The notes under the pieces: model-generated
Told to the model about the DNA's origin: nothing
Database searches by the model: none
The model's input: the letters and a program-made list of their open reading frames with translations, nothing else
Assembly (NCBI GenBank): GCA_964187785.1
Contig: OZ076409.1
Location: forward strand, 56,236,001-56,296,000
Length of the DNA: 60,000 nucleotides
Reading direction: 5' to 3'
From: Amphiscolops sp. MND2022
Lineage: Eukaryota
Position numbers and translations under genes: made by a program
Shown here: piece by piece, positions 6,138-51,576 of the stretch
How positions within the stretch are numbered: position 1 is the first letter of the stretch
How the letters are laid out: the number at the start of each line of letters is the position of its first letter

Positions 6138-6728
6138 TCTTCTGTCATGAACGTGACGGGCAGATTGTCCACCCGATCGGTATCCATCATGTTGTTCATT
6201 TCTACAGTCGGCCTTAGCACTTGGAATTCGCTGTTCCTCGGCATTTGCTTCCGGTCTCTCGACTGGGACTTCCCATCCCCCTCTGGTCTCTCGGCCTGAT
6301 CCGGCCATTATGACATTCTGTATTTGAGGCAATACTTGACTACTAATAGCTTCATTAATGGCCCTTTGGATCAGCGTATCAACATTACTCATCATTTCAT
6401 CCATCTCACGGGATATCCTAGAGTTCAATTCGCTAGACAACCTATTTATCTCAGCTAGTGAGTTTGCTTCAGCCGAGTTTTGGCCAAGATCGGCACTTGT
6501 CCTAGGTTCATCATTTCTACAATTTGAAAACATGCTTTCGCCCTCGTTGTCTAAGTTATTACTCATGATACTTTCTCTCCTTCTAACGGAGTTACTTTCT
6601 AAACTCCTTTCTCTTTCAGTTCCCTTGTAACGATCGCCTCCTAACATTATATCTAAATTTTCGATATCAGAAAGGATCTCTAGTCCTCTGGACTTTCTAG
6701 CCTTCTTTTGTTTTCTTGTAGTAGGCAT
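6135..6728 (-). other. LTR-borne duplicate of the gag N-terminus (~195 aa), stopping in flanking DNA
   Basis: MPTTRKQKKARKSRG... matches the first ~195 aa of the ORF at 19462-20997 except for two substitutions. Confidence 0.9.
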
Positions 6729-7870
6729 AAGGAAAACTTCGAGTATAAAATTGAATTAGATTATATCTCGAAAATAACAGTGAAACCGTTTGTACTAATA
6801 TGATAGTCTTTTTCAGAAGAGAGCAAATTAAGAAGTGTCTCCTCTCTCAAAGGCACGGGTATTTATACCCCTGAAAGGGTGACACTCTCATTCTTTACAT
6901 TCCTTGACTAAGACAATATCATATGACTGCATTTTTGATGGTCACGGGATGAACGCTATCCATTCCAAATATTATACATCAAAGGAACAATCATTCAACC
7001 GTTAGCATCGTTTACATATTTGGCGAAATATTTTCATTGAACAGGTATTTGTTGATGTAAGTGCACATACTTTAGCACGTGGCAGCACAACAAATATGTT
7101 TAGTCTAAATACCTTTCACGGGTACAATGGCAAAAGGCCTAATAAGGCAACAATATCAAATTTCATGCAACAGCTATTTTAGAACAAATTGGATAACTAT
7201 TTGTTAATGGTACAACAGAACATCAATTAACACTTCAGATTGGTATTTCATGATCAACAAAGCTAACTATTAACTAAATATCATTACATGAAATTAGCAT
7301 CAATCATAAGTGCTTTGTTTATGGCGGACTGAATAGCCGGATTAGGCCGGTTGCCTGAACGGCATTAATAGCACTTTCGTTCGGTTTGTACAAAGGCCGT
7401 AATTGGCAAAAGAGAATAAAGCACACGAAAATGAAGGCCTCTGATTGGCTAATTGGGTGAGCGCAAGCGGCGTTGGCAAGAAAGTACAGGAGTCCATTTG
7501 AACTCGTTTCCGTACTTTCTCTTAGTTGCTTGCTATAATCTTTGATTATTACTACATTGCATTGATAATACAACAATACAGCACAATCTATGTTAACAGA
7601 CTAATATACAGTTAACATTCAAGACTAAGGTTGATCATAAGTAATCAACAAGTGCGATAATTCTAAGTTTTGGTAACAAGGGAATACGTCCCAGTACGGC
7701 CCTTTTTGGCTATTTTCTAAAATAATATGGCAACAAAATACATAAGCAACGTAAAAGTTTAAGAGAAAGTTTTAGTTTACTTTAATAGATAGGGAGGGTT
7801 CCTGGGGCCACATCCTGGCCAACAGCTGTTGTTGTAATCCTTGTGCCGTCACAGGCGGCAGCCTGCGACA
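6143..7870 (-). repeat. 3' LTR of Gypsy element B (1728 bp)
   Basis: Near-identical to 20412-22139. I noticed only four substitutions by eye (~6166, ~6533, ~7797, ~7813). Confidence 0.97.
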
Positions 7871-8552
7871 CAGCGGGTGCAATGAAAAGAAGACTGCCTG
7901 CATTAAGACCATTGATGTAGGCTTCTTTCCTGAGAGCCGTGATGTAAGCGGGTTCGCTCCTTGGAGTTGAGACTTCCATATATCTGTTTATCTTTATGGA
8001 TTTTATTTCGTCCACAGATTTTCCACAAACCATACAGCTTGTGCACCTTTGGGAGCTGATATCAGTGTAAGGCAACGCATTTTGTATGTGGAAAGAAGCA
8101 TGGAATCCACTACTTTCGGGTTGTATCACCGGCGTATCCATAGACGGCCCTCTCTCATGAGCGGGGGGCGAAAGCGGCGACTCTAACACAGGCAAAATCG
8201 TCTTGCATAATTCTATTCTCCTCTTCGTGTTGCCTCTAGACGGAGCATAGCATAGTTCCTCGTCGAAGTAGGTTTTGTCCAGTTTCGGTGTAGTTTGCGC
8301 GTCTGAAGGCACAAAGCTAGGACCAGGTTCGTCGCTCGCCGTCGTCATCCTTCTGCCGGCTATGGTAATTGGCTCAGCCTGGACTTGAGTTTCAATCCTC
8401 CTCACCATCTCTTCTGTGTCCGTAGACCAGTCTGAGTCCCATCCGTCAGAGGTTTCTTCATCACTGCTGATGTAGATTACAGAGTCTCTCGATGAGTCAG
8501 AGCTGAATTCCAAAGAACCAAAGAGTTTTCTCGCTTTATTGAATCTTTCCAT
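7782..8552 (-). CDS. Accessory ORF of element B, 256 aa, unknown function (acidic/Ser-rich N-terminus, CxxCxxC motif); ends inside the 3' LTR
   Basis: Intact ATG-to-stop ORF containing CTSCMVCGKS. The last ~29 codons lie within the LTR. The junction peptide resembles the one at element D's 3' LTR border. Confidence 0.7.
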   Translation of the reverse strand: MERFNKARKLFGSLEFSSDSSRDSVIYISSDEETSDGWDSDWSTDTEEMVRRIETQVQAEPITIAGRRMTTASDEPGPSFVPSDAQTTPKLDKTYFDEELCYAPSRGNTKRRIELCKTILPVLESPLSPPAHERGPSMDTPVIQPESSGFHASFHIQNALPYTDISSQRCTSCMVCGKSVDEIKSIKINRYMEVSTPRSEPAYITALRKEAYINGLNAGSLLFIAPAVSQAAACDGTRITTTAVGQDVAPGTLPIY

Positions 8553-9595
8553 TATTAGTTTTTTCGCAATTTTGGGGATTTGCTAGTCAACTTGTCGTGA
8601 GCGAGTTTGAAATCAGAATGAGCTTGTTGCCTCCTCAAATTCCGAGTTAGGCCTTTTCCCGAAGTTTCCAATTTAGCGGGAGAATCTCAGGTTGATTGCC
8701 CCGATTCTTCGTAAACATTCCTGAAAGAAATTCCTAAACGGGGTTGGCGGCCCCGATTAAGTAGGTGTTTGCCCTTCATACGAGCCATCATCAAAGTGGG
8801 TGTAAGCAGCACTTAATTTGTTGATATCAAATATCTTTTCTTTAAGTGGGTAATTAACGGCTTGCTTCGGATCAATTAATAACACGCGCCGCTAAATTCT
8901 TTCAACATGGCTTCAGCCAATCAGAGTTAAGCTCTGATAAAATGAAAAATTAAATAATAAAATGGCGAAAATAAAAAATCTGAATAATTCAAAATGGCGG
9001 ATTTTTAACTAGCGGTAACTGAGTTAACTGAACTAAATAATAAAGTGCAACAGGTCAAACGGCCGGAATCGGCAACTAACTAAGTAAGCTGTAAATAACA
9101 AAGTTCTTTGTACATTTCGCTGGCAGACTCCATGTACATAATAAATATGTAAATAACTAAATAATATTAGTCTGATAAACTTCCTTCAGCCACGAACTCC
9201 AACTTCTAATTCCATTAACCCATTTTAATTCCAATTCAATTCCAATTATTTTACTTTGTCTTCTTCGTCTGATATCCATTACCGGACAATTTTCTCCACT
9301 CTTCTTAATCTCTTCAACAGCGTCCTTCTTCCTCTTTGAAGTATTCCCGAGACCTGTCCTTGGTCCGAGTTCGGCCAGATTCCACACCTTCTGAGCTTGA
9401 TTGGTTCGACAGTAAAAGGCAAAGCAGGACGGAATGTCTTCAGTTGAAGGTTGGTTTGCTTTGGTTTTGAACTTAATTTACTTGATCAGGGCTAAATTTG
9501 TTCACAAGATGCTTCCTGTATCCATCAGTAAACACGTGATAACACGTTTTGTTCAATTTTTCAAAGTACTTCCGGAAGTTTTCTAATGCGGTAGA
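8553..9595. promoter_or_regulatory. Candidate internal bidirectional promoter between the divergent accessory genes
   Basis: Head-to-head ORF starts. AGCCAATCAG (~8916), TGATTGGTT (~9399) and two AAAATGGCG (YY1-like) motifs (~8959, ~8991). Confidence 0.4.
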
Positions 9596-12500
9596 ATGGA
9601 TTTCTTTCAAGGAAGCTTACCGCCAAATTTCATCTCCTTCTGTTTAGAACAACAGAACGTCGACGAACCACAAATTCAAAGCATTTCCACAACTGGTAAT
9701 TCCACTGCGCTTCCTCAACGTCCTTTACCCATCTCAATGCCCAGCAGTACGCCTTCTCCACCTCCGTTTCCCCCAATAAGAACATTCCTCGGCCAAGCGC
9801 AACAGTTGACTGCTGACTCTCCCTTTAGCAATGAAAGTAACGTTGATGTCACAGCGTATGCAGACGAGATGGTCCAACGTATGGAAGTCTCACAGGGGTT
9901 GACTGACACAAATCCTGCCGGCCCTAGGGAAGAAGAGCCGTCTCCGGCACAAGGCCCAGTTGTCCCAGACGTGGGTCACGTCCTTATTCAAGTGAGAACT
10001 AGCACCCCAACACCCTCAGAGCAGCCTGGAACAGAAGTTACCAGCATTTCACAACTTGAGTCCTCACTGTCAGTAGCGCCGCAGTCGCAGTCTGGTTTCC
10101 CTGAGCTGCAACTTGCCCAGAATCGTAGTCACGATACATCTGCAGTTTCTTTCCTGCAGTCAGATGATGAAGCCTCATCTTCTGTCCATGAGCCTCCTCC
10201 ACTCCCCGGCGGAACAGGACATTTCACCGCTCCAGGGGACCACAATGACACCACCCAGGCTGTTGATACTACCAGTCAGTCTGAAATTCCCCTCTTGTAC
10301 GCGAGCATCCCTTTCGGAACGGGGTCAACATCAGAGGCTCAAGAAGATTCAGGATCGGAAATACACGATCCAGGACCACCAGGGACTTCTCGGTTTAATC
10401 CTCAGCCACAAGAAGAAGTTCTGCGAGATTTGTCAGGACGCAGCAGAGCCACTCTCAAACAGTATTTTGAGGCCGAAGACCCTTACACGTTCCCGGTTGG
10501 ACAGAGGTTTGTAGCCTTCACAGAGCCGCAGGTCTATCACCTGCTTCGGGTTCTCACTGACGAGGCCATCAATATGACTTGTATCACCATGGAGAGAATG
10601 GTAATTGGAGCAGTAAAAGGAACTCCCGTGACTGCCCCTTCACGGACTGAGAAGTTCCGGACGCGAACCCGAGCTCCTTCCCCAGGATCCAATCGCCAAG
10701 CTGGGTCCAGCTCCGACGAGCTTTCTGTCGATCTTGGTTCTCAGCCCAGTCCACAACTTGACCTGAGCACACTCCAGGATGTCAGTGGTCTCTCCTATCT
10801 CGAAGATAGTGACAGTTCCATGGAAAGGCTCTTGATTGACAGAGTTTATAATAAACCTGCTCCTGAAAATCTCTCTACAGCCTCACAACCAGGGCTGTCA
10901 CACAACACGACTGAGGGAGAGACTGAATTCCAGGAGAAGAGCAGCCTGGACTGTACTTTGTCTGAGCTTCGCGGTCAATCTCCTACCCAGAAGTCCCGTC
11001 AGGCAGTTGTCTCAGCCAGGAAAAGCAAGAGCAAGAGGATGCCAAGGCGGGGTGTGCCTATGCGTGAGGAGTTCTTCTCCAAGATAGCATGGACAAGATC
11101 CTTCATTTCTGGCCCAGCAGACCCGCTACATAACCCTTACATGGTGTGGTGCCACATGTGCAAGAAAAATTTTAGCATAAAGACTAAAGGCACTGTGGAA
11201 ATCTTGCGTCACCACAGGACTGAGAAACACCTTCGCCGAGACCAGAGGTGGCGGTTCGAGCACCTCAAGACAGTTGATGACGTGACAGGGAAAGTCCAGC
11301 ACAGAGTTCGAGGAAGGGATGGCAAAGTCCTCAATAAATCCGACCTTGCGCAAGAGCTTCCCAAATTCATCCACACAGAACTTGTTGACGTTGGCGAGAG
11401 ACATCCTTTTTACGAGGATTACTTGAAAGGACACTCTTCGGCTCCTGTAACACCTCAATCGCGATTGCAGGCCCAGATTTGCCTCTTGGGAGATTTCGTC
11501 CAGGACTCAGGCAACATAGCTATCCTCCGCAGGTTGTGGGCTAGAGCAGGGAGCTATACTGGATTCCAATCAGTCTTCCATGATTTTGACTGGAGCGAAG
11601 ACCACATCATGGTAAGTTCACTCGTTTGTTTCATCATAGAACCATTCGTAGCGTAAGGGTAGCTTGTAATGGTAAAGCCGTATGGTCATCCGAGTTTCGT
11701 TCCGTTTCAGGCCATTTTCCAACACGTCTTCAACTGCATGATGGAAGACGTGGCAGAGCAAGTCATCGCTTCCCAACACTATGGGATTGAGTTCGAGAAG
11801 AGAGGGGCCAATCGCTTGATGTATATCCGATTTTGGAAGGGTGCAAAGCTTTGTCGCATCTTCGTCTGTCGAAGTGGACTTTCTGGCGTCGGGCTCACTG
11901 AGGAGATGGGCTCCCTATCACGATTGTTGTCTGCCATTTCTACCGCTCCCGATGTGGTCGCGATATCTGGATGTGCCGTTGACCTGATAAGGACAGTGGA
12001 CCAGCATCCCTCTTACCCACGTGGGATCCAAAGTTGCTTCCGGTTTGAGTCGCTCGACTTGAGGACCTTGATGCACAAGGTAAACTACAGCGTCTTCGGG
12101 CACATAGACATGTTCTCTGTCCTTCAATGTCTTCTGGTCTCGCTTGGAGGTTGCTTATCTGAGGACTGGGTCACCGATTCGACTGAACTTGTCCGAGTAA
12201 GTCTATTTTGCAAATTTGTTCTGCATAATATTGGTGAAGGGCGGAGGTAGTCACTGACAGTTAGGGCTCCCATTTTTAAATCGTTTTGTTTAGGCTATCA
12301 CAACTTGCACACTGGAAATAACCAAAATACCTGATTTGTGCCGCGATCTGTTGAAGAAGTGGAAGTCGATCCTGCGCTACTTCACTGTGCATTCACGCCG
12401 ACAAGAGAATCAAGGGGTCCATAACAAGGTTGTAATTCACAAAATCATCTGTCCTTTTAGACAGAGTTCTAGTGAACGTTCCTTTTCATAAGCATAGGCA

Positions 12501-13856
12501 GGGTTATCGTTTCAAATTTACATCATACCTTTCCACAGGTCCAGAGCTTCGAGTGGTCCCTGATCATGGACAATTTCTTCACTGTCAAACTGGAGCTGTT
12601 CCAACGCCTGGTCAGCGATTGTGAGTATTTCTAGTTTGGTAGGGTCACTTTGGTCTGCCGTCCTTTTAGGGACCTTCAGATTCTGTGTTTTAGATGTCAC
12701 TAGTTTCGCCATCAATTTGGGTCAGAGGCGAGATGCTACCTTCTTCCTTTGTGGAGAGATGTGCAAGTACATCAATCGTCTTTGCTTCCGCATCTACCAG
12801 CCTGACACTGTGCCTCTGGAAAGCGCTTGGTTCCTGTTGATGGACTTCCGAATCAGTCAGGGCAAGCCCATGAGTGATGAAGATTTCCTGGTACGGCTCA
12901 AGATTGTCAGTAAAGTGACCAGTGCAAGCAACTTGAAGGCAGCGGGGCTTCATTTCAACAAGAAATCTAGTAAGGCAGCGATCGACAAGACTGCTGAAAG
13001 CGCAAAATCAGACTTTGTGAAGAGTGCGAGGGAGTTCATCAAGTTCTTGTTGTCCGGAGTACTCCAACACTCCGAGCTCGGATCTGACCTCATCAAAGGA
13101 CTGGCTGCGTTTGATCCGCATATCCTCTTCAGGAGGCCCGTAGAAATTGCTTTGCGGCATTTTGACCGTCTGTATTCCACTTTCCAACTGCGTTCCTGGG
13201 TTTCAGCGTCCAATGAGTCAGTTTGCCGGGACGAGTACGTTGCCCTATTGGAATACCTACGAGCCAACCATTCTTCTGAGTTCGGCTCCTCCTGCGATCC
13301 TCCTGATCTCATTGACTTCTTCATGGGATTGGAGTTCCTCCACACACATGAGCATCTCTGTTATCTGTTCAAACTGAGTTGCCTCTGTATCACTTCTGTG
13401 AGTCCCGAGTATCCTCCTGTTTCTTTGGGCAAGATTGACACAAAGGGGCTTCAGTCTCGTTTAGCGGACGTCATCTTGCCTTGTCAAAGTTATCTGTCAA
13501 CAGTGCCTGATTCTCTGGTTGCCTGCTGTTCTGAGTCTCGTCTCGAGAAATTCTTCGAATTGTCTTCGACGTTTGGACAGACTGCCTTCACTGCCGATTA
13601 CGACCCGTGGACCTTTGTAGACAGCTTCGGCCGTTCAGCAATTTACAAGACTCTCGTCACTTCTTATCGCTCTGTTCTCGCCGGGTCAGAATTCCATTTT
13701 AGAAGTCCTACTTTCGCTGATACTTCTTCTGTGTCTGATGCTCCTGCTGTGAGGCCACCCAGTGATAGTAAGCGGAGGCGGATGGAAAAGAGTTGTTCCC
13801 GGGGTAGAGCTTCGTCTGTCCTTGGTGAATCTTCTGCTGGTGGTTCTAAGAGCTAA
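9596..13856 (+). CDS. Spliced antisense gene of element B: BED-like zinc finger plus degenerate hAT-transposase-like protein, ~1293 aa. Exons 9596-11611, 11711-12196, 12294-12428, 12539-12620, 12694-13856
   Basis: Four GT-AG introns (GTAAGT..TTTCAG, GTAAGT..TTTAG, GTTGTA..CCACAG, GTGAGT..TTTTAG) with matching phases 0,0,0,1 join into one 3882-nt open frame. Motifs include WCHMCKKNFSI...ILRHHRTEKH, DLLKKWKSILRYF, LAAFDP and LCYLFKLSCLCITS. Confidence 0.8.
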
Positions 13857-14082
13857 TTGTACATATGTATTTATGTACTTGCAGACTGTAAACTTTGTTG
13901 ATTTTCTGTTTATTATTTATTTCATTTTGTTGCTCTCGATTTTTCTGATCCCGTATTTATTTTCTTTGTAAGGGATCGTCCGAGTGTCCCATTATTTATT
14001 CAAATGATACTAGAGGGACTGGAAAAAAAACGGAAAAAAAGATAATAAGAAAGAACTCCCATTTTCGGGAAGAATTCAATCT

Positions 14083-17000
14083 TTAGTATCTGAAGTCTTC
14101 TGAGTAGTTTGGGTTAGGGTTAGGCCTGAGATTATATTTCCCTCCTCTAGGGCTCAGACTTTCATTTCTAGCATCGCTTTCGGATATTTCGGGCACGATA
14201 ATATCATCCCCCCTTTTTGGAGAGTTTTGTGCATCGTTTTCATTCGTCAAGTTTCTTTCTGAAAAAATTTCATCATTTTCCGGTCCACCTGCCGTACCCG
14301 GCAAAGAATTTTCTTGGTTTTTTGGGGAAACGGCCGGATTCGGCCAATCAGATTTGGTATTTTCTGTCACTGCAGTAGCTTTATTTCTTTCAGTGACGTC
14401 ATCATCTAAGCGTTTATTCCGGCTGTGTGCCGCGTTGTCGTTGTTTAATTCTTCTCGCGTGATTATGTAATCCGCTTCGGTCTCGTCTACGTCATTTGCA
14501 TTCGTTTCCGCCGTGTTCGGCTGTTCGCCATTCGGCACGCTAGTTGGAATAGTCTCGCTGCCTCGTGTAACTAGTTGCTCTCCAAAATCTGTTTCCCACG
14601 CTATGACGTATAGGTCGTCTTGCGGAATGACAATTTCTTCGTCTGGCTGCAGACGTTGTTCTCGGAAATTGTCCTCAAGCGGTTGATTGGGAATAAACCT
14701 TTTAAGGCGAATGCGATGCAAAATTTGAGTTTTGTTCGTATTGATTCTTCGTACTATGTAGTTTTCATTTGGCAAAACCTTTTGGACTACAAATGGTCCA
14801 ACCCAACGATAATCGCGGAATGGAATTTTTGATCCTTGATGATCCGCTTTCGGCTGTAAGACGAAACAGTAATCATTCTCCTTCAATGGAGCAGCTTTTG
14901 CTTTGCGATTGTAGTATTCTTTGTATTTAATATACGACTGCATAATGTTCTGTTTCGTCTTGTCAATCAAGGTTTTCGTCCGATTTTGGATTTCCTCGGC
15001 GAATTCAGTTGTAGGGCTGATCTTTTCGTTTGGATTATTTCCAAGCTTGTGATCCAAGATATTGTAGGGAATTCTGCCATGGAATACCCTTGTTGGCTCA
15101 CAACCGATGCTGGCGTGATAACTAGTATTATGATTGAGTACTGCTAATGGCAAGTATTTATGCCATTGTCGGCGGTATTCCCCACATGCCATTTTGAGAT
15201 TTGTCTTTAATGAGGCATGGGTCCGCTCTAATTTCCCAATTGTTTGCGGGTGCTTTGTCGTTGCACATTTGAGTGTAATGCCCAAAATTTGCGTAACCTC
15301 CGCAATAATCGTAGAAGTGAATGCAGTACCCTTATCAGTAATAAGAGTCGTTGGCAGATATGCATGTTTGGTCATTATGTCAATGAGCGCCTTTGCCACA
15401 TTGATTGCTGATGCGTCTGTAAGGGGGTAAGCGAACAAATATCTGGAGAAAACATCAATTGCCGTTAGAACGTTTTCGTACCCTCCACTTGGGGGAAGAT
15501 TCGGCAATAGGTCAATCTGCATGGCGTCTTCAGGTCCAAGGTCCCATTCGGGCAAGTTGAGCAGCTCAGGTGTGATCGTTGCGTTAGGGACTCTTTTGTC
15601 TCTGGCACATTGTTCACACCCTTCTACCCACTTTTTGACGTGTTTAGCCATGCTAGGGTAGTAATACCTTTGTCTAATTTCCTGCAACATTTTTGAAATC
15701 CCGGGATGTTTATGCGCTGTCCCATGAAGGGAGCGAAGCAATTCCCGAAGTAGGTGTTGCGGGAGTAAAATTTGATGGTATTTAACATTCCCTGTTTCAT
15801 CAAAATATTGCCTCGTCAGGATTTCGTCCTTTAGTACAATTCGTTCCAGATTGTTTGCGTAATGTCTATATCGGGCATCTTGGTGCACTATGTTTTCTGA
15901 ATAATCTTCATGAAGGAGCTTTGCCTTCAATTGTTGCAATACTGCATCCTTGGACTGCTCGATGATTATCTGGTTTGTTTTCTTTAATCGGACTTGGATG
16001 TCTGGTTGTTGTTTGACCAGATTGGTTGACAGAGTTTCTATGGTAACAGTGGGCTCATCAGTCATTGGATTTTTCCTGATTGCTTCTTTTCTTGCCCAAT
16101 ACTGTTCCTCTGTCTCGTCATCATCATTCGTATAGAATATTTGTTCTTCCTGTGATACTCCCGCAGATTGAACATTTATCTCAATGGGTAAAGTCTGCAC
16201 GTCCTCACGGATCTTCATGATTAATTTATCCTTCGGGTCTGCCTCCAATCGGGACAAATAGTCAGCTGCTGTGTTCTGTGCTCCCGGAATATGCGCTATG
16301 ACAAAATTGAACTGAATCACATAATCGCATGCATTCCACAGGGCTGGGGGTATTATTTTCGTTTGGAAAAATCTCGTAACGGCTTTGTTGTCGGTAAGGA
16401 TAATGACCGGTTTGGGCGCACCCCAGAATATATGTCCAAATTCTTTGAATGCAAAGTAAATTGCCAGAAATTCCTTGGCATATATTGACATTTTGATCTG
16501 GGCTGGGGTGAAGGTTTTTGATCCATAGGCCACCGGTGCGTAGGATTTTCGGAGAGATGTGAATTTCTGGTTTGGATCGTCTTCTATTAAGACCGCATAT
16601 CCAGCTGCACCAAAACTTGCATCAGTCATTAGTGCGATTTGTTTGTTCGGGATAGGCTGTTGTAGGGCCAAATCGCAACATTTGTCGAGTGCCTTGTTGA
16701 TTTCTTCGAATTGTTGGACTAATTCTTTCGATACTAGGACCTTTTCGTCACTTTTGAGCATCTTGTAGAATGGAGCAAGGCGTTCAGAGAGTCTTGGGAC
16801 ATAATTCCTGTAGTAGTTCAAGAATCCCAAGTAGCGCTGCAAAGCCTTTTTCGACTTTGGGAATTTGGTCTTTTCCAGAAGGTTTTGCACGTTCTGTTTC
16901 TGGGGTTTGACGCCTTGCGGGGTAATAGTCCGTCCGAGAAAATCAATTTCTTTTGCACCAAAGTGACATTTGTGCATTGTCAACTTAAGGCCTGCTTCCT

Positions 17001-19287
17001 GAATGCATTTGAATGTTGCTCTCAGGTTCATTATGAGGTGGTGAACATCATTGGCTGCGATGCCGATATCGTCCACATACTGGGCGCACTGATCCGCTTT
17101 AATGACTTTGTCGAGGTATTCCCTCATGAAACTCGAGAATGCGGATAGTGACCGACTAAGGCCTTGTGCCAAGCGTCTGTACGCGAATGTACGACTGGCA
17201 AAATTGAAAGCTAACATTTCGATCGAGCGTTGGTCGGCCATTGGTAGGCAGTGGTATGCCTGCGAACAGTCTAATTTACAGAACAGTTTTTTGCCTGCCA
17301 AGTGTTGGGCAGCATCAACCAAGGTGCTAACAGGGTGATTATTGTTGATATAATCATCCGAGATGAGGTTGTTGATTTTTCTCAAGTCAACCAAAAGTCG
17401 TAGCTTCCCATTTAGTTTCTTTTGGGCGAATATTGGGCTTGCATACTTCGAGAACGGTAGTGTGGTTATTATGCCATATTTGTGCAACATGGCTAATTCG
17501 ACTAGGATGTCCTCCTTCAAGTTGATAGGGGCTGGAAGACTTTGACTATAGGCTGGGGAATCGTCCTTAGGTGTCAGTTTCACTTTGAATTCCTCGTTCA
17601 TGCCTATATCAAATCGGTGTCGTGCAAAGATGTCATGGAATTCCACTAACAATTCCTCAATTTTCTCCTTCTCTTCAGGAGTAAGGGTGGAATCTTTCCA
17701 GTCAAAGTTTTTTAAGAATTTTGCACGCGATTCTGCGTCTGTGGTGGGGTCGAGTGTCTCCAGGTCCTGTAAGGCCTGTAACTCGCGTAGGATTCGTTTT
17801 TGTATGGGTGTGTGTTCCTCAGGATTTCCAGGGTTTTCTGGAGTTGGGAACCAATAATTTTCGGAGTTTTGTGGATTTCTATTGGTTTTGATGAGACTGC
17901 TGACATAATGGGCTGCTTGCTCCTGGTCATTCTGCAAAAGGTGCCAGGTTGATGCCGGGTCTACCGGTTTGACATACTTCATTTGTTCTGGCGTCATGAC
18001 AGAGAAATTGGCAATATGTAGTCCCTTTTTGAGTTTATAAGGGTGGTCTGTGAAGTTGCTCATTGGTATCGATATATTGCCGTCATTCAGAGTGACCAAG
18101 GCTGGGCAGAATGTGATGTCGCCTTCTTCATGTAGAAGGTCGCTCGGTTGTAAAATTCCAGTGACAGCATTCTCAGGGTACAGTAGGGAATTGGTCCTAA
18201 TTAGGACTCTATCATTTGGCGGAATGGTTATCTCAATGGGATTGAGAATCGGTTCTAAGACATTTGAGTATTTATGGTCAGCTGTTTTGAGCTGCATTGA
18301 GAAGAACGGGAAGTTCAGTATTCCTTGTCTCATGTCCAGGACTGTATGATTTCGTTGAAGGAACATTAGGCCGATAATCGGACCTGTCAGGTGTTCCATG
18401 ACTATAAAAATCTCATGAAACTCAATGTCACTAACTTCAAATTTGAGCTCTATGGTACTCTTAGGAGTTTCCAATTGCCCGTTAGCAACCATTATTTGGA
18501 AATTTGGAGGCGGACCTTCCCGGATGACAGATTGTGGAGATAGAAGTCGAATTTTCCGGAGGTCCATTTCAGGAATTGCACTGGACAGCGCTCCAGTGTC
18601 AATAAGTCCGTCTATGGTCAATTCCCCAAAGTCCATGGGGAAGTACAACATGCGTTTTTTGCATTTGAGATTGATGTTGGTTGACAGGGGTATACAGTCT
18701 GGTTCACCATATCTGGTGATGAGTACATTTTGGAATTGTTTTTCATCTAATAATGATTGTGGCGTGATTTCACCACTGTTTTCAGTATTCTCGGTCCCCA
18801 GGGGATTTGGGAACACCGGATGGCTTGTGCCATCATTCATTTGCCAGGTTTCAATCAATGCTCTAGTTTTCTTGTTGTGGGTGATTGGAGGATTTTCATG
18901 GGCTGATTTATTGTAGAGTTCGATATCATCAATGACGTATTGGAATTGTAGCAGATCTTGGTTGTAGAGTTCCGTGTCCCAATAGGGATCTCGTCCATAA
19001 TCGGGGTCTATGTAGGTAGGGTTGTAATCGTCTACCAAGGGAATGGGCCTGAATCGGCTATTGAAAGCAGATGTGTAATCAGGATCCCATACAGGAATTG
19101 GGTTTTGGAACAAATGGGTATTATTGTAAGTAATAATGCTAGCTTTTTCCATCTGCTGCTGCCAGACAACAGAAGGATAGCCCATCAATTGTTGATTGTA
19201 TTGGTGGAAAGTTTGCGTTGGAGGGTCCGATCTGATGTATTGTCGGACAGATATTAGTTGATTGTATTGGAGTCGTGGCGAAGTTAG
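14083..19287 (-). CDS. pol: Gypsy Pol polyprotein (aspartic protease, RT, RNase H, integrase), reached by -1 frameshift
   Basis: 1701-aa ORF at 14083-19188, open upstream to the slippery site. LIDTGAL; KLDCSQAY...QYVDDI; MTDASF; HGTAHKHPG...CEQC; QIDLL...TDKG...LER. Confidence 0.97.
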   Translation of the reverse strand, partial: LTSPRLQYNQLISVRQYIRSDPPTQTFHQYNQQLMGYPSVVWQQQMEKASIITYNNTHLFQNPIPVWDPDYTSAFNSRFRPIPLVDDYNPTYIDPDYGRDPYWDTELYNQDLLQFQYVIDDIELYNKSAHENPPITHNKKTRALIETWQMNDGTSHPVFPNPLGTENTENSGEITPQSLLDEKQFQNVLITRYGEPDCIPLSTNINLKCKKRMLYFPMDFGELTIDGLIDTGALSSAIPEMDLRKIRLLSPQSVIREGPPPNFQIMVANGQLETPKSTIELKFEVSDIEFHEIFIVMEHLTGPIIGLMFLQRNHTVLDMRQGILNFPFFSMQLKTADHKYSNVLEPILNPIEITIPPNDRVLIRTNSLLYPENAVTGILQPSDLLHEEGDITFCPALVTLNDGNISIPMSNFTDHPYKLKKGLHIANFSVMTPEQMKYVKPVDPASTWHLLQNDQEQAAHYVSSLIKTNRNPQNSENYWFPTPENPGNPEEHTPIQKRILRELQALQDLETLDPTTDAESRAKFLKNFDWKDSTLTPEEKEKIEELLVEFHDIFARHRFDIGMNEEFKVKLTPKDDSPAYSQSLPAPINLKEDILVELAMLHKYGIITTLPFSKYASPIFAQKKLNGKLRLLVDLRKINNLISDDYINNNHPVSTLVDAAQHLAGKKLFCKLDCSQAYHCLPMADQRSIEMLAFNFASRTFAYRRLAQGLSRSLSAFSSFMREYLDKVIKADQCAQYVDDIGIAANDVHHLIMNLRATFKCIQEAGLKLTMHKCHFGAKEIDFLGRTITPQGVKPQKQNVQNLLEKTKFPKSKKALQRYLGFLNYYRNYVPRLSERLAPFYKMLKSDEKVLVSKELVQQFEEINKALDKCCDLALQQPIPNKQIALMTDASFGAAGYAVLIEDDPNQKFTSLRKSYAPVAYGSKTFTPAQIKMSIYAKEFLAIYFAFKEFGHIFWGAPKPVIILTDNKAVTRFFQTKIIPPALWNACDYVIQFNFVIAHIPGAQNTAADYLSRLEADPKDKLIMKIREDVQTLPIEINVQSAGVSQEEQIFYTNDDDETEEQYWARKEAIRKNPMTDEPTVTIETLSTNLVKQQPDIQVRLKKTNQIIIEQSKDAVLQQLKAKLLHEDYSENIVHQDARYRHYANNLERIVLKDEILTRQYFDETGNVKYHQILLPQHLLRELLRSLHGTAHKHPGISKMLQEIRQRYYYPSMAKHVKKWVEGCEQCARDKRVPNATITPELLNLPEWDLGPEDAMQIDLLPNLPPSGGYENVLTAIDVFSRYLFAYPLTDASAINVAKALIDIMTKHAYLPTTLITDKGTAFTSTIIAEVTQILGITLKCATTKHPQTIGKLERTHASLKTNLKMACGEYRRQWHKYLPLAVLNHNTSYHASIGCEPTRVFHGRIPYNILDHKLGNNPNEKISPTTEFAEEIQNRTKTLIDKTKQNIMQSYIKYKEYYNRKAKAAPLKENDYCFVLQPKADHQGSKIPFRDYRWVGPFVVQKVLPNENYIVRRINTNKTQILHRIRLKRFIPNQPLEDNFREQRLQPDEEIVIPQDDLYVIAWETDFGEQLVTRGSETIPTSVPNGEQPNTAETNANDVDETEADYIITREELNNDNAAHSRNKRLDDDVTERNKATAVTENTKSDWPNPAVSPKNQENSLPGTAGGPENDEIFSERNLTNENDAQNSPKRGDDIIVPEISESDARNESLSPRGGKYNLRPNPNPNYSEDFRY

Positions 19288-20997
19288 TTTTTTGACTCAT
19301 CATTGGAAGATGAGGCCTGTGAGTTGGAAGATGTTGATTTGTTTTGTGGTTTCTGCGCTTTTGAATTGGGTTTACCGTCATTAGCGTCATCTGGTCTGGT
19401 GCGTTTGGGTTTGAGATGCGCACCAGCACCTTGCCAACATCTTTCTTCCGGGTGGTTCTTTTTACCACAAGTGCCACACTCCGGATACGTCTTTTTCTGA
19501 GTTTGTTCGCCTTGTTGGGCATCTTTTTCTTTTTTTCTTCTTCAATTTTTCACAGTCTTTGACCATATGGCCCTTCTCCTTGCAGTAGTTGCAAGTGATG
19601 TCCGACATTTGCCCAGTAGTTAGAGGAGTCTTGGATTTTGTTGTCGAGGAGGTCATTGTGGCCATTGGTAGGTCGTCTGATTCGTCAAGGGCATTTAGTT
19701 CTAATTCTCTCTCTAAATGAGCAACTATTTCGTCATAAGAGCCGTTTTCGAGTCTGGCCATGTTTACAGACCGCTTCAGTTTTGGTGGCAGTTTTGCGTA
19801 GAGCAAACTGTCAATCATTTTCTGCGCGTGATCCCCGAATGCTTTTTCTGCCCCTTGATTTAATTCTTCAAGGAAATCTGGCAGTTTCATCGTGTTGGGA
19901 TCGAAGACTAGACGGTGCCATTTATGTTTGGCAGTTGCTTGTGATTCAGGTTTGACGTATTTTCGTCTGAATATTACCAATACGTCCTCTAAAGTCTGTC
20001 TATTGCTCGAGCTGATGTTGCGGAAGGTTTGGAGAGCATTCTTCCTCAGCAGTGAGTGGAAGTGATTTATTTTCATCTGTTCCGTCATTTCCGGTTGCAT
20101 CTTGATCATCGTGTGGAACAGGTCCTCAAACAGCTCGAATTTTTCACTCTTGCCATCAAAGGTCATTGTGTTTGAATTGACTGGGCGTATAGTGAGTTGT
20201 TGGGCTGTCGGACTATTCTGCATCGTTGTCAAGACATCTGCTAGTCGAGTAATAGGGTCGGTTTGAGCAGCCGGAGCATTTCTCTCTTGCGCTGGGATCG
20301 TCGTGTCAAGGTTGATGTCTTCATAGGACCTGTCGAGATGGTTTCTGGATGAGACTCGTCCCGTGAGAAACTCGGGAACTTGAAGTGGAGATTCGTTGTC
20401 TCCTGTCACCATGTCATGAACGTGACGGGCAGATGGTCCACCCGATCGGTATCCATCATGTTGTTCATTTCTACAGTCGGCCTTAGCACTTGGAATTCGC
20501 TGTTCCTCGGCATTTGCTTCCGGTCTCTCGACTGGGACTTCCCATCCCCCTCTGGTCTCTCGGCCTGATCCGGCCATTATGACATTCTGTATTTGAGGCA
20601 ATACTTGACTACTAATAGCTTCATTAATGGCCCTTTGGATCAGCGTATCAACATTACTCATCATTTCATCCATCTCACGGGATATCCTAGAGTTCAATTC
20701 GCTAGACAACCTATTTATCTCAGCTAGTGAGTTTGCTTCAGCCGAGTTTTGGCCAAGATCGGCACTTGTCCTAGGTTCATCATTTCTACAATTTGAAAAC
20801 AGGCTTTCGCCCTCGTTGTCTAAGTTATTACTCATGATACTTTCTCTCCTTCTAACGGAGTTACTTTCTAAACTCCTTTCTCTTTCAGTTCCCTTGTAAC
20901 GATCGCCTCCTAACATTATATCTAAATTTTCGATATCAGAAAGGATCTCTAGTCCTCTGGACTTTCTAGCCTTCTTTTGTTTTCTTGTAGTAGGCAT
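19284..20997 (-). CDS. gag: Gypsy Gag (~570 aa after removing one A from the A7 run at 19530-19536), with two CCHC zinc knuckles
   Basis: Capsid-like TFDGKSEKFELFEDLF; CNYCKEKGHMVKDC. The second knuckle CGTCGKKNHPEERC appears only after a 1-nt correction. Confidence 0.9.
19287..19293 (-). other. -1 ribosomal frameshift heptamer A AAA AAC directly before the gag stop
   Basis: Minus strand reads TCA AAA AAC TAA. The -1 frame (CTA ACT TCG...) is open and in phase with pol. Confidence 0.8.
20400..20411 (-). promoter_or_regulatory. Primer-binding site TGGTGACAGGAG of element B
   Basis: Directly follows the CA end of the 5' LTR and starts with TGG (complement of tRNA CCA). The tRNA identity is not established. 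Confidence 0.85.
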
Positions 20998-22139
20998 AAG
21001 GAAAACTTCGAGTATAAAATTGAATTAGATTATATCTCGAAAATAACAGTGAAACCGTTTGTACTAATATGATAGTCTTTTTCAGAAGAGAGCAAATTAA
21101 GAAGTGTCTCCTCTCTCAAAGGCACGGGTATTTATACCCCTGAAAGGGTGACACTCTCATTCTTTACATTCCTTGACTAAGACAATATCATATGACTGCA
21201 TTTTTGATGGTCACGGGATGAACGCTATCCATTCCAAATATTATACATCAAAGGAACAATCATTCAACCGTTAGCATCGTTTACATATTTGGCGAAATAT
21301 TTTCATTGAACAGGTATTTGTTGATGTAAGTGCACATACTTTAGCACGTGGCAGCACAACAAATATGTTTAGTCTAAATACCTTTCACGGGTACAATGGC
21401 AAAAGGCCTAATAAGGCAACAATATCAAATTTCATGCAACAGCTATTTTAGAACAAATTGGATAACTATTTGTTAATGGTACAACAGAACATCAATTAAC
21501 ACTTCAGATTGGTATTTCATGATCAACAAAGCTAACTATTAACTAAATATCATTACATGAAATTAGCATCAATCATAAGTGCTTTGTTTATGGCGGACTG
21601 AATAGCCGGATTAGGCCGGTTGCCTGAACGGCATTAATAGCACTTTCGTTCGGTTTGTACAAAGGCCGTAATTGGCAAAAGAGAATAAAGCACACGAAAA
21701 TGAAGGCCTCTGATTGGCTAATTGGGTGAGCGCAAGCGGCGTTGGCAAGAAAGTACAGGAGTCCATTTGAACTCGTTTCCGTACTTTCTCTTAGTTGCTT
21801 GCTATAATCTTTGATTATTACTACATTGCATTGATAATACAACAATACAGCACAATCTATGTTAACAGACTAATATACAGTTAACATTCAAGACTAAGGT
21901 TGATCATAAGTAATCAACAAGTGCGATAATTCTAAGTTTTGGTAACAAGGGAATACGTCCCAGTACGGCCCTTTTTGGCTATTTTCTAAAATAATATGGC
22001 AACAAAATACATAAGCAACGTAAAAGTTTAAGAGAAAGTTTTAGTTTACTTTAATAGATAGGGAGAGTTCCTGGGGCCACAACCTGGCCAACAGCTGTTG
22101 TTGTAATCCTTGTGCCGTCACAGGCGGCAGCCTGCGACA
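20412..22139 (-). repeat. 5' LTR of Gypsy element B (1728 bp)
   Basis: Repeat of 6143-7870, followed by the PBS. Contains the gag ATG at 20997. Confidence 0.97.
21129..21136 (-). promoter_or_regulatory. Candidate TATA box (TATAAATA) in the element B LTR
   Basis: Lies ~130 bp upstream of the gag ATG; copy at 6860-6867. Upstream CCAAT-like motif at ~21712. Confidence 0.55.
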
Positions 22140-22144
22140 TCTTC

Positions 22145-25879: not shown

Positions 25880-27400
25880 ATATAGTTTTCAAAAAACCCC
25901 TTTTTGCGGGAGGATTTGTGTTATTGCAGTTTGTTCACATGTTATTCTACGGCTGTGGAGATTGTGCCCCTATATGGCTAGTTTTTGTAACTTGCTATGA
26001 ACTTTTCCAGGGAGTCGCAGTTTTTTTTGTTGTGGATGTTCATGTTTTTTACTTCTGGTCGAAACTCTTCATAAGACTTGCAAACAAAAATAATGATAAG
26101 CGTCTTCTTCTGATTGTTGACAGGGACATAGTGGTGATTCAGCTTCCACATTTTCCACGAATATTCAGCTAGTGCAAAAGAGGTATCAATTGTGAGCTCG
26201 CATATTTTGATTGCAGGTTAAGTTTGGCCGTATATTAAAGGACTGCATGATATTACTGTGGGTTTTGTTCCGGGTAGATATGATAGGATACCATCTGTGT
26301 TGGATGTAACTTTCGATACCATTTTTGGTGTAGTTTGTCAAATTTATACCATTCATGAACTTCGAAACTTCAGTTATTTGCTTTCTCGAGAGGAGGCTGC
26401 TTTGCTTTCATAATTCAGTTTGGCATTCAGGTGAGTTGTTCTCACGAAATCGTTTTTCCATAGCGTCTTTATTGGTTATTTTATCTCTATTCCGTCATTC
26501 ATTATAGAAGTCCTGTGGGGGAAATCCTAGTAGTACTTCGCAGGTGCTTGAATTTGGTGTGTAACTATGTAACAGATCTAATAAATGCTGCTGGGTTTTG
26601 ACGTCAATGGTCTTTTTTCTGTTTAAACCAAATAGGTGATGCGTTCATCAACTGAAGAATGACAATCGTTTTGGAAAGCATCAGTAGGGTCGGAATTGAC
26701 TGGCACCATTTGAGCTTCCAAGCTTCCAGCTTCCTTTCACTTTCTCACAGTCTTTCAGAGTGTTCTTTGTAATTTGGCCGCCAGCTGTTGAGGACTTCCT
26801 GTGCTTCCTCAGACGACAAAAACTCCAGACGTATGTTACCCCGAGCTGTGTTGAAGGGCACTACCAAATTTTTCATTGGAAGAACTTTGACGAACGCTTT
26901 CTTTATTTCCACGCTGTCTTTGAACTTATGATTTCCACTGACGATCAATACTTTATTCACATCTCTTTCACTTTTCTTCGCTGATTTTCGTAAATTACTG
27001 GTTGGGGATGGGTCACGAGCAAGCTTGACCTTATCGGCTGAAGTGTGTAAAGGTTTCATGTTTTGTTGCATGATTGATTTGATAGTTAGAATGTCGATTT
27101 TCATTGAATTCAAAGCTTCTTGTTCTTGTTTCCTGTTTTCAAGTTCAGTAATTTGTCGTTGGTTCAATGTTTTTAGCGTTTTCAATATGTTTGCACTTTG
27201 ACGTTGGGTGTTATTGTTTTCACACTTGGGGCAATACCAATGGACGGCTAATTTTTTTGATAGGATTGGTATGATCCAACTTCTACACCTCCACACGTCC
27301 CGTGCCACCAGTCAAGGCAGCGGTTGCTTGAGATCGAGTTGTTTTTGTTTTTAGGTATCTTGGCTTTACATTTAGGTACAGGAAGCTACCCAGTTGAAAG
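25880..27400 (-). mobile_element. Internally deleted LINE copy (ORF1 5' part joined to probable ORF2 3' part)
   Basis: 26770-27370 is closely similar to 40495-41100 (WYCPKC, DVNKVLIVSG...FNTARGNI). Confidence 0.65.
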
Positions 27401-27913
27401 AAGCTACTTCGTTTTTTTTTCGTTGGTCAAAGCTTCTTCCAGGTCAATATAAGGTAGGGCAAGGGTTTTTTTAAAGTTTTGCTTTTTAAAGATTCAGGTG
27501 CAGTCAATAGAGAGGTCTAAGTGTGCTTCGGTTTCTTCGGAAGCCTTTTTCTTCTGCTGCTAGTAGAGTATTTGTCTCAAGGTGGCTCTTCACACGCGTA
27601 CAAAACATCCGTTTGAAGGGTTTTTAGCTTGAACAGTCGTCGTATTTTGCTTTATTGGGTTTGCGGATGAATATCACTCGTGGTTGGGTCCTTAGCCAAA
27701 CCGCTTTGTTCCAACATTTATTGAAGAATTCCAGAAGAAAGGTCCTGGCGTAGTCGCCAAGTTTCTTCACCATCTGGATATGGAATCCTTCGGGGTCAAA
27801 GGAATTTGTGCTAGGACATTGCTTCGATGAGTCATTCAGCTCTTCTGAAGAGAAAACTTCTTGGAAAATTTCCATATAGTGCTCTCCAATCTCTTCGGGT
27901 TGTTGAAGGAAAG

Positions 27914-28761
27914 TGTTGGCGCCAGTCAGACACAGGCAACGAAATTCGATTCCCGACATGCAGTATGAGAAACAAAACTTAAACTCTTAGAAACTTAGAA
28001 GAAAAACTGAAGAAGTATCAAGTGTAATAAAAATGGAAACCCCCCAAATAGGTTTTTTCTACAACTGTTATTCCTAGAGCCATGAAATTTGGCACACTTA
28101 TGCAAGGACCTAACACAAACACACCGGCTAAGTTTCAAGGTCATCCCCCCATTATAACTCACTTTACCCCCCACATGTGTGATATTCAAGGTCATTGAGC
28201 CAAAATAAAAATGTTGCTATTTACCCTTGTGACCCACTTAGAATATAACTCTGTTGAAATTGGTGATCATTACATTGTGTAAACATGCTTTAGAGCCTAC
28301 CTAATAATCATGTCAGAACCACCACATGCTTTGTTTACAATGCCAATACCTTTATTAATTCTCTTAAATGTCATTTATTGATACTTCATAATTTGACTTA
28401 TGTTCATCAAATAATTGTAAACGATATTTATACCAAAACTAGTTAGGCACAATTTGATTGGAAAGCTGTATTATAGTCGGGTCTCGGGACCATTTCAATT
28501 CTCAATTCATTTCTTTACCTCTTTTCGACGTTTCGCCAAAGACTAAGGGCGACTAAGTTAGGAACTCTCAACTTGTGGAGAGTTCGACGTGTTAAGAGAC
28601 AAGGAAGAATTGCAATTCGGGATGATTGGATCCTACTGAGTCAAGATACAGTCCATTTAATCTAGGAAGCAAGCAGTGTTCGGTAACGATCGGCAGTGCT
28701 GAGCACCGAATTCAGGGCGGCGTAAAACTTGGTCAAGTGTAGGGATCAAGCAGCCGTTAAA
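27914..28761 (+). repeat. 5' LTR of element C
   Basis: TGTTGGCG start; diverged direct repeat of 37830-38678; terminal CA mutated to AA. Confidence 0.85.
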
Positions 28762-32297: not shown

Positions 32298-32362
32298 AAT
32301 CATCGGACGTTGATGATGGAGTTTGTGATGATTGGGAAAACTATGACCTGGTATGAGAAAAC

Positions 32363-33950
32363 TGTCACAGTCCGCGCCCGGACTGGATTGAATTAAAAGC
32401 AAACTAAAACTAATTTACGTCACCGCTTAGCCAAAACGATTGAATTTGCGTCGCGACTACGCTACGTCACAGCCTCGTCTACGCATACCAGACAATCATT
32501 CCGATTATCCGTCTATACTAATAGTTTACTTGAAATCATTCCAATTTTCCGCCAATGTGACGTCACAGCGCTGGCAGCTAACTAGCTAAAGTCTTATTCT
32601 AAATACCCGTCAGCATCACGTCAAACTAGACAAAATCTCATTTCTGCCAAGAAAACTCGTCAACATGACGTTGACAAGTTTATGAAATTAGACGTATTGA
32701 GTATTTTCCATCAAAATAGCTTGTTTTAACCCGTCCAAAATACCAAATTTACGTCCACTCTACGGCCACTAAAATTGCGGACTAAGACTAATACCAAAGT
32801 TACGTCCACACTACGTCCCAAATTTATGAAAATAGGCGTTTTAGTCAGTATCGAATTTAAAAGAAGCCTTATTTTACTACGGTAAGACTAATCGAAGCTA
32901 GAATATGAATCAACGTCAACACTACGTCTTTTGAATCTACGTCAACGCTACGTCAACTAATATACTAGAAGTTGAGAAAACACATTTCTACGTCAGTATT
33001 GCGTCGAGTAAGATTGAATTCGAACGGAATATGGTATTTAAGCCAGGATTTTTCAGACTAACTTAAAATAACAGTGTTTTAACGCTATTTAAATTGGAGA
33101 GTCACAGTTTATCCTCACTTTGTGTTAAGAAAGTGCAGTCTAAGCAGGCGTTTCAAATGTATGCTTTGATTACCTAATTTATTAAACTCATTGGCTGTTT
33201 GACGATGTCACGTCGTCTTTTATTGTTGCTCAAGGGTGTTCCTCTTAACTTTATTCAGATAAATAATTGTTGATTGTTGAAATATACAATTGTTTAACCT
33301 CATGTAAAACAGTCACTCTCTTAGCATCACCAAATTGTCTAAATCAAGATAATTAGTCATAATTTTCTTCAAGTAAAAATTCAAAATCAGGTATTAGTTG
33401 TTCACGTCAGCGTCATCTCCGCGGCGGTTTCTTACGAACCAAAGCAGTAAAACGGGGAAATATTTCCGGTTTGACAGACTGAAGTAATAACTACTTCCTG
33501 CTTGGGAGGAAACAAAAGGACGCCGGAGAGAAATGATATGATCATGGTTGATGACTTATACTCGATTAGAATTGCCGTGTCTTAAAAAGTGACGAAATGC
33601 TAACGCAGATCAAAATTTTGCCGCAAAATTACAGGAAGTGACTAATATCTTGATTCGAAATTAAAGTACGCGAGTATGAACAGATGATGCTAGGAGGGTA
33701 TATATAGATTGTACCTGTAAAATTATTCAATTCAATTTGTTATTCAACCTGCGTTTCAGTTTTGTTCTCAATTTCGATTGAATATCTACCTTCGTAAAAC
33801 GCAAAATTCAAAACTTACATTTCAAATACTTTGTTCAAAACAATCATATCTTCATCAAGATGTCAACTAGAGGTCGGAAAACAGTCCAGCAGTCGATTAG
33901 CAAAAAACACCCAAAATAGCCAAAGTAGCGATCGAACAAATTTCGTAACA
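32363..33950 (+). repeat. 5' LTR of element D
   Basis: Highly similar to 35998-37585. TATATATA at 33699-33706. Many ACGTC motifs. Confidence 0.92.
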
Positions 33951-34216
33951 TGGTGAGTGACAGGAGTTTAGGACCCTTGAACAAATGTACCCAAGAGAAC
34001 CTCAGCACAAACCACCGTCCAAACATCGTCCCTCCACATTGTGGATGCTCTTCGCCCCGGAAATGAAAACAAACCTACACCAACCCAACGCCAAATTGTC
34101 AAAGAAATTTCGCGAATTCGTCGACCGTGAGAATCTTGACCCAAGACGCAGTTCCACCAAAATGAAGGCTCCTACGTAAATGGCAATTGTAATCCACCAT
34201 AGTCGAGTACAATGAC

Positions 34217-34560
34217 ATGTTTACGAGACACCGACTCGACATTGGAATCAACATCGTTTTCAAAGTGAAATTTACCAAGAAGAACAACAGCTCTGTCTAC
34301 ACCCAAAGTCTAGCCGTGCCCATCAATTTCATAGAAGACCCCACAGTCGCTCTTGAGTCTAAGCAAAAATACACGATAATCACTACCCGCCCATTCTCTA
34401 AACCCGCAAACCTGAAAATTGAGCAACGCAACCCAAACGGCAAATGGAGACTTGTTGACCTACTGATGATAAACGAGTTAGAATTCGACGACTACACCAA
34501 CAACAACCACCCCGTCAGCTCATCGTCAGATGCAGTCCAACACTCGCCGAGGACATCAAT
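34217..34560 (+). pseudogene. Degenerate RT N-terminal fragment in element D
   Basis: FTRHRLDIGINIVFKVKFT...DDYTNNNHPVSS aligns by eye with element B pol FARHRFDIGMNEEFKVKLT...DDYINNNHPVST. Confidence 0.85.
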
Positions 34561-34931
34561 TACCACAACACGTGATTTCAAAAGTCGGCAGCATACTCTT
34601 TGGGGTGTTACATCGGTAAGTTAAAAAAAGTAAAATCTCCCTGAGGCTGAGACGTGCATTCGAAAGATGACGATGACGTAGTCTCTGAAGCACACATTCA
34701 CGAATCGACTAGTCAAAAAATCTAAGCAATGAACATTCAAAAGCAGAAAAGGCCTATCTGCAGTTTCGTATGATTCACAAAAGCTTAATGAAACGGGGAA
34801 TGTTACAAACCTAAGGGTTGTTGAACAACCAGCGCGTCGGCGTCACTAATACGCACATCTCCCTTAGAGAACAAAAATGAGTCTAATTATCACTTTGCAG
34901 ATCATGATCTTTTAAGACCATATGGATCTGA

Positions 34932-37585: not shown

Positions 37586-37829
37586 AAAACAGTATTTGGA
37601 AATATTTCAATGTCTTATGTCAACATGTGGAAAACAACCTTACGGTCAACGATTTGGAATATGAGCCAAGATTTCATTGCAGTAGAGGAAGAACACAGCA
37701 AGCAACTGGCAAACATGACTAAGAATCTGGAGTTCTCAGAAAGACAAAGACGATTGATGGCAAACTCAAAATACCAGTAGTGAAACAGGCACCCATGTTC
37801 AAAGTTCGGGAGAAAAACAGGGCCGGAAA

Positions 37830-51550: not shown

Positions 51551-51576
51551 AGAATTACACAGAAACAGAAACAGAA

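Follow-up and report, generated by a model that had tools for sequence, protein, structure and literature searches.

A spliced antisense accessory gene, probably derived from a hAT-type transposase, in an abundant Gypsy lineage of Amphiscolops

Background

The window analysed here (60,000 nucleotides of contig OZ076409.1 of Amphiscolops sp. MND2022, to which all coordinates refer) contains an LTR retrotransposon with three plus-strand open reading frames (9587-11656, 11663-12250 and 12564-13856), lying antisense between its minus-strand pol gene and its 3' LTR. An initial annotation joined these frames into one intron-containing gene and proposed that the retroelement had domesticated a catalytically dead hAT-like DNA transposase. 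The locus raises the question of whether this is a genuine gene of the retroelement, and if so, where it came from and what its product may do.

Plant Gypsy elements and the fungal element Boty are known to have antisense open reading frames (aORFs) at this position; in the accessible text of one review their origin is called unknown and they are described as lacking similarity to other transposable elements (PMC7264820). According to the same text, an origin by nested insertion finds no backing in any similarity to other transposons, and antisense transcripts that are spliced should be looked for (PMC7264820). The aORFs of Retand elements carry PF04195, according to the part seen of PMC11963269.

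Results

Architecture of the host element

The retrotransposon is a complete, young Gypsy element on the minus strand, running from 22139 to 6143. The two LTRs have TG..CA ends and are identical but for 4 of their 1728 bases.

6138..6142: left copy of the 5-bp target-site duplication TCTTC that flanks the element (right copy 22140-22144)
6143..7870, minus strand: 3' LTR of 1728 bp with TG..CA ends, whose U3 end shares 89 nt with the end of ORF3
14083..19296, minus strand: pol, a single open frame of 1737 aa in which Pfam places protease, RT, RNase H and integrase, in Gypsy order
19462..21024, minus strand: open frame of gag, including a zinc knuckle; its Met, at 20997, lies some 195 codons within the 5' LTR
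20400..20411, minus strand: primer-binding site, 12 nt, directly after the 5' LTR
20412..22139, minus strand: 5' LTR

The Ty3/Gypsy assignment is based on the LTRs with a short target-site duplication, gag followed by protease, RT, RNase H and integrase, and a tRNA primer-binding site. The bases of this site following TGG match the 3' terminus of a tRNA-like sequence that occurs many times in the host genome (1268 matches with at most one mismatch; 0 for the reversed control). At the position of the polypurine tract, before the 3' LTR, the conserved sequence is pyrimidine-rich on the sense strand and encodes ORF3 (see below). No env-like gene was identified in the element.

One antisense gene with four introns

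Removal of four GT..AG introns (99, 97, 110 and 73 nt; phases 0, 0, 0 and 1) leaves 3882 nt, encoding 1293 aa with a single terminal stop. The joining of three frames and two small exons by phase-matched introns into a stop-free protein, as first annotated, was thereby reproduced.

9596..11611, plus strand: exon 1, encoding a 485-aa low-complexity S/P/T/Q region with conserved islands, a zinc finger and then a conserved domain
11150..11230, plus strand: C2H2 finger (C519, C522, H539/540, H545), BED-like, below the Pfam cut-off
11612..11710, plus strand: intron 1, phase 0
11711..12196, plus strand: exon 2, predicted b-b-b-a-b-a-b, like the N-half of an RNase H-like fold (low confidence, pLDDT 52)
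12197..12293, plus strand: intron 2, phase 0
12294..12428, plus strand: exon 3
12429..12538, plus strand: intron 3, phase 0; exactly absent in two copies of one clade, present in a distant lineage
12539..12620, plus strand: exon 4
12621..12693, plus strand: intron 4, phase 1
12694..13856, plus strand: exon 5, all-helical, like the hAT C-terminus by language-model features, with a basic serine-rich tail (KRRR)

The splice model rests on comparison among genomic copies. Across all 35 other aligned copies, 278 of the 280 splice dinucleotides are GT or AG as expected. Of 140 intron-copy pairs, 61 have an intron length other than that in the window, and in 56 of these the difference is not a multiple of 3; for exons there are 4 such differences in 140, two of them not multiples of 3. 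Five copies with an exon 5 that is only 51-58% identical have their introns at the same codons. A distant lineage with 64-67% pol identity, of which two copies were compared, has the same five exons in both, with all four introns in place and stop-free spliced cores that are 36-37% identical to that of the window.

In two of the five copies with a 51-58% identical exon 5, which form one clade in the exon-5 tree (c986 and c10), intron 3 is gone exactly at the predicted junction; in a third of the five (c13), exon 4 is out of frame past the acceptor. Since intron 3 is present in the distant lineage, its loss in the former clade is the simpler reading. Such an exact loss would imply passage through spliced RNA, and hence would be an indirect sign of expression.

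The gene is integral to the lineage and under selection

The gene had been annotated as part of the retroelement. A simple nested insertion, the alternative named there, would be recognised by terminal inverted repeats (TIRs) with an 8-bp target-site duplication around the gene and by its absence from sister copies. So as not to select for the gene itself, copies were sampled by integrase: the 148 best matches, all close relatives of the window's integrase, were taken at steps of seven. The antisense gene was found at the same place in all 21 copies. In each of the 18 that were fetched, exon-5 sequence lies antisense at this position (17 whole, 1 internally deleted), and the other three were assigned by coordinate match to exon-5 hits. 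Conversely, in all 35 copies chosen by exon 5 the sequence continues as far as the end of pol. The gene flanks (7871-9600 and 13851-14400) were found to share no inverted match of at least 12 bp.

The lineage is very abundant (7,381-7,805 first-look candidates, and at least 107-150 scored matches per search). A search of the genome with exon 5 gave at least 107 scored matches from 7,805 first-look candidates, and one with the finger region at least 150 from 7,567.

For the window against copies L031 and L033, dN/dS is 0.01-0.09 in the core; the N-terminus gives 0.18-0.20. Core synonymous sites approach saturation when deep subfamilies are compared (pS 0.66-0.92, pN 0.19-0.32).

The host is rich in hAT elements (at least 150 scored matches to PF05699), which would speak for a nested insertion. 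A recent nested hAT insertion or a chance splice path is nevertheless ruled out by the presence of the gene in 21/21 sampled copies and in both copies of the distant lineage, by synonymous saturation and conserved introns, and by the lack of a flanking inverted repeat of 12 bp or longer; we consider the probability of either to be negligible. On the comparison of copies, the antisense gene is a real, old, selected and spliced accessory gene of an abundant Gypsy lineage. For its structure, its fixation in the lineage, the purifying selection on it and the reassortment described below, the sequence comparisons leave us with little doubt.

ORF3, the shared spacer and reassortment

Upstream of the antisense gene, and head-to-head with it, lies a second accessory gene in the sense of gag and pol.

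7782..8582, minus strand: ORF3, a 266-aa frame with Met at 8552 and an acidic N-terminus, entering the 3' LTR by 89 nt
8583..9595: head-to-head intergenic region, putative internal promoter with conserved CCAAT, AAAATGGCG and ACTTCCGGAAG blocks

This gene and the exchange of modules had been overlooked in the initial annotation. ORF3 has no Pfam match. It is kept in all six subfamily copies, at 54-70% per aligned piece, and at 32% in L093, the distant-lineage copy whose stretch reached ORF3. The 1-kb spacer is 67-84% identical among seven copies, against mostly 42-55% for non-coding parts of the LTR. The ACTTCCGGAAG block stands directly before the ATG of the antisense gene, also in L093. We take the conserved blocks to be sites for CCAAT, YY1 and ETS factors, and the spacer is probably an internal promoter common to both genes and independent of the LTR.

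Synonymous distances of integrase and exon 5 barely correlate (rho 0.13 over 1081 pairs). Saturated exon-5 pairs occur with an integrase pS down to 0.008, and near-identical exon-5 pairs with values up to 0.50, contrasts that are inflated since both samples were picked by similarity to the window. The gene, ORF3 and the LTR show conflicting affinities among the seven copies, and copies whose gene alleles are very different still have integrases that are 97-99% identical. Judged from these distances, versions of the gene that diverged deeply are freely recombined with various LTRs and with a pol that is common to them. This argues against a protein that recognises the variable LTR of its own subfamily; what it binds is probably invariant. 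Across subfamilies, LTRs are 97-100% identical in their terminal 25-31 bp.

Features of the predicted protein

The annotated S/P/Q-rich N-terminus of about 500 aa corresponds to 485 aa with 13.6% S, 10.5% P, 8.7% T and 7.6% Q. It is disordered and acidic with conserved islands, and the C-terminal tail is basic. The predicted C2H2 finger is present (C519-C522-H539/540-H545) and is the most conserved part of the protein: over 57 aa it is 86-91% identical in five deep subfamilies that are elsewhere 50-60% alike. The body, annotated as helical, is so in exon 5, but exon 2 is predicted to be alpha/beta. About 150 aa beyond the hAT-like C-terminal stretch have invariant motifs of their own. Database homologues go as low as about 25% identity; among the entries with a listed name, every one is an unnamed protein. 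Two of these probably come from other genomes: within the present genome P0147 reaches at most 40% identity, over 107 scored places, and P0206 is without a match at 1e-60.

Ancestry of the antisense gene

Descent from hAT, and with it the BED/hAT assignment of the finger, was favoured by some tests and not by others. The strongest indication came from the ESM Atlas, searched with exon 5 after the hAT family had been predicted as the outcome. The top match was an unnamed cluster at 0.94, and 23 of the 30 matches belonged to the Dimer_Tnp_hAT set (best 0.93, with the family on 60% of members), scores to be read against shuffled proteins that reach 0.9 4-10 times in 100. FAM200/GTF2IRD2-like clusters scored 0.91-0.92, and nine of the ten best family matches share a clan. 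Exon 2 gave no signal in this search. The finger matches zf-BED at E 0.05-0.35 (11-14 bits, below the cut-off of 20.6) in 5/7 fragments; zf-BED was not listed for the three finger pieces of the distant lineage.

The alignment-based tests were negative. Nowhere in the antisense protein was a Pfam cut-off reached, PF04195 was not matched, and no HMM match to PF05699, the C-terminal hAT dimerisation domain, was found. Comparison with host hAT proteins by hhalign and by a custom profile stayed at background level, in tests of low power (shallow profiles, Neff about 3, and five of the seven distinct host hAT target frames Ac-like by eye). The strand-helix order of the low-confidence exon-2 model fits the N-half of RNase H. 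With Foldseek, Hermes appeared at rank 20 (E 1.9, 203 columns, not significant) among other RNase H-fold proteins, from predicted models too poor for fold comparison (pLDDT 52-53).

A real antisense accessory gene of other descent, with a finger and helical pattern that are convergent and an origin as obscure as that of the plant aORFs, would agree with the uniformly negative alignments, with the roughly 150 aa of private motifs past the hAT-like stretch and with the scores reached by shuffled proteins. However, the Atlas returned the family predicted beforehand, and did so through two hAT-derived family sets; the finger, the strand order and the weak Hermes row point the same way, and the negative tests, with shallow profiles and mostly Ac-like targets, had little power. 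Non-hAT descent thus seems rather unlikely, and the gene probably descends from a hAT-family transposase or from a hAT-derived host gene.

The initial annotation also regarded the protein as catalytically dead. ERxFS is missing from all ten aligned copies. At the presumptive positions of the DDE triad, assigned by characteristic hAT motifs, the first site is E699 or E701 (no Asp), the second S758-G759 and the third variable; across the family these positions hold Glu, Ser/Thr-Gly and a variable residue. The lack of the usual triad residues at these positions and of ERxFS argues against an active hAT transposase. Given hAT descent, catalysis has very probably been lost, the residue positions remaining presumptive.

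Discussion

Proposed role and its alternatives

We propose that an ancestral Gypsy element took in an intron-containing hAT-type gene, oriented antisense, in the interval from pol to the 3' LTR. Antisense introns stay in the genomic RNA; because they are not removed from it, the gene is copied intact with its introns. The captured gene would have kept its zinc finger and scaffold and lost its catalytic residues, and it has a long disordered N-terminus. It would be transcribed from the internal promoter, head-to-head with ORF3 and independently of the LTR. The product may be a nuclear accessory factor that binds DNA or chromatin and acts in trans to keep copies transcribable, by trans-activation or anti-silencing. 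Its target would be something invariant: the tips of the LTR, for example, the conserved promoter within the element, or else a factor of the host. A captured hAT-type gene that is now a trans-acting nuclear regulator is, tentatively, the best overall explanation.

Among the candidate roles we favour trans-activation or anti-silencing over an integration escort or tether, and the latter over a self-limiting brake. A regulator is suggested by the highly conserved finger, the disordered acidic N-terminus, the basic tail and the putative LTR-independent promoter, although we would put this role at somewhat under an even chance. Integration comes next: the dead transposase scaffold would bind cDNA ends or chromatin and escort or tether the integrase complex to chosen sites. 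hAT proteins bind the ends of their elements, the LTR tips are nearly invariant, and a near-constant integrase beside very different gene alleles would suit a single invariant partner; a captured domain that steers integration has a precedent in CopiaMBD, according to the part seen of PMC6673714. Yet the gene would have a separate antisense transcript and shows no fusion to integrase, it diverges far more than its would-be partner, and the conservation of the LTR tip is also explained by ORF3 coding through it, so that we regard an integration role as unlikely. Still less probable is a brake, in which antisense RNA and protein would curb expression of the very element that encodes them or keep out sister copies, a role that has been suggested for antisense units of retroviruses and retrotransposons. 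Antisense transcription would run towards the 3' end of pol, at a distance of 226 nt, and regulatory roles of both protein and dsRNA are among those proposed for aORFs in the text seen of PMC7264820, but the lineage is very abundant, and an action at the RNA level needs no 750 aa at dN/dS below 0.1.

Comparison with known systems

HTLV-1 HBZ and foamy virus Tas are spliced or separately promoted 3' accessory genes, and nef overlaps U3. The present genes resemble these retroviral regulators in being accessory genes at the 3' end, with ORF3 entering U3. However, the regulators are small proteins of enveloped retroviruses, whereas here no env-like gene was identified and the putative promoter is internal instead of in the LTR. 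The HTLV antisense promoter is mentioned in PMC7264820.

The aORF-3R elements are similar in the position, orientation, conservation and presence in most copies of their antisense frame, and in Grande the antisense gene is served by a promoter of its own and its product is nuclear (accessible parts of PMC7264820 and PMC11963269). In contrast, the gene described here is interrupted by four introns within its coding region, encodes 1293 aa with a zinc finger, faces a head-to-head partner and gives no match to PF04195. Capture of a foreign gene followed by its retention is shared with CopiaMBD, the bdelloid ORF3s and the transposon anti-silencing factor VANC; in the portions seen of these reports, none is described as antisense and multi-intron, and for none is descent from a class II transposase mentioned (PMC6673714, PMC5408684, PMC13547354).

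With hAT transposases (Hermes, Ac, Tip100) and hAT-derived host genes (ZBED, FAM200, GTF2IRD2) the protein would share the predicted order of a BED-like N-terminal finger (below cut-off), an alpha/beta region and a long helical region; its language-model features match Dimer_Tnp_hAT and FAM200/GTF2IRD2-like clusters. It differs from them in the TIRs that were not found, the Pfam cut-offs that were not reached and the DDE/ERxFS motifs that are absent at the presumptive positions, and also in the extra 485-aa N-terminus, the C-terminal extension of about 150 aa and its spread by a retroelement.

In the literature searched, with most subscription papers and the Repbase records outside its scope, no multi-intron antisense gene or hAT-derived gene inside an LTR element was found described. 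What is probably new in relation to the known aORFs is an intron-rich gene for a probably dead hAT transposase.

Significance

For antisense extra genes of LTR retrotransposons, a class so far without a known origin or function, the locus provides a large, intron-marked, high-copy case with a donor that can be tested. Recombination among Gypsy subfamilies is marked directly by the precise loss of an intron and by the way in which gene, ORF3, LTR and pol have reassorted. If hAT descent is true, this is domestication of a transposase by another mobile element, not by the host. More speculatively, a class I element may long ago have tamed a class II transposase, which perhaps enabled its high copy number: the dead hAT protein, from a two-gene cassette with ORF3, would bind the element's DNA and shield or switch on all copies in trans, while many ancient alleles of the cassette would be kept by reassortment onto one pol.

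LTR tip, gag and primer site

No polypurine tract was found preceding the 3' LTR of the Gypsy element (window 7846-7895). The LTR tip in this interval, 25-31 bp long, is almost invariant between subfamilies and doubles as coding sequence of ORF3, the minus-strand accessory gene. Approximately 195 gag codons fall within the LTR (20412-20997), and a gag fragment is therefore present in every 3' LTR as well; this LTR-borne part has reassorted separately between subfamilies (61-95%). Elsewhere in the genome, tRNA-like sequence matching the primer site forms long tandem arrays at two places (G000:C8:35587799-35635277 and C11:5996587-6013164).

Other repeats in the window

The window contains the following additional elements:

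26769-27376 and 40498-41104: repeat pair, 89-90%
27908-28759 and 37825-38676: repeat pair, 89-90%
32362-37585: second, short LTR element; LTRs of 1589 bp, 98.3%; TSD AAAAC
34208-34600: pol remnant of 132 aa, within the second LTR element
51446-53979: several long inverted repeats, along with palindromes; they are probably DNA transposons of the non-autonomous type

The primer site of the second LTR element is similar to that of the main element. This second element also has a 54-bp tandem array, and no match to the antisense gene was found in the element. The frames encoded by the first repeat pair resemble the zinc-knuckle ORF1 of non-LTR elements.

Spacer and ORF3

At 9433-9578, an ATG directly ahead of G|GTTGGTT is conserved, with internal CTTGATCA and GGAAG. 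This pattern, also present in L093, a copy from a distant lineage, suggests that the 5' UTR of the antisense gene contains a fifth intron and a short upstream ORF. Upstream of ORF3 (8600-8910), conservation across subfamilies, judged by eye, looks three-periodic, so another short ORF or exon may lie there on the minus strand. Similar blocks rich in TGTACAT..GCAGACT occur in the intergenic spacer (9100-9160) and directly past the stop of the antisense gene (13855-13895), and are possibly 3'-end signals.

The N-terminus of ORF3 (8552-8500, minus strand) reads VIYISSDEE, as it does in two other subfamily copies, c10 and c7; this is similar to a SUMO-interacting motif. The protein also contains a CxxC pair. 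ORF3 could act against SUMO-dependent silencing.
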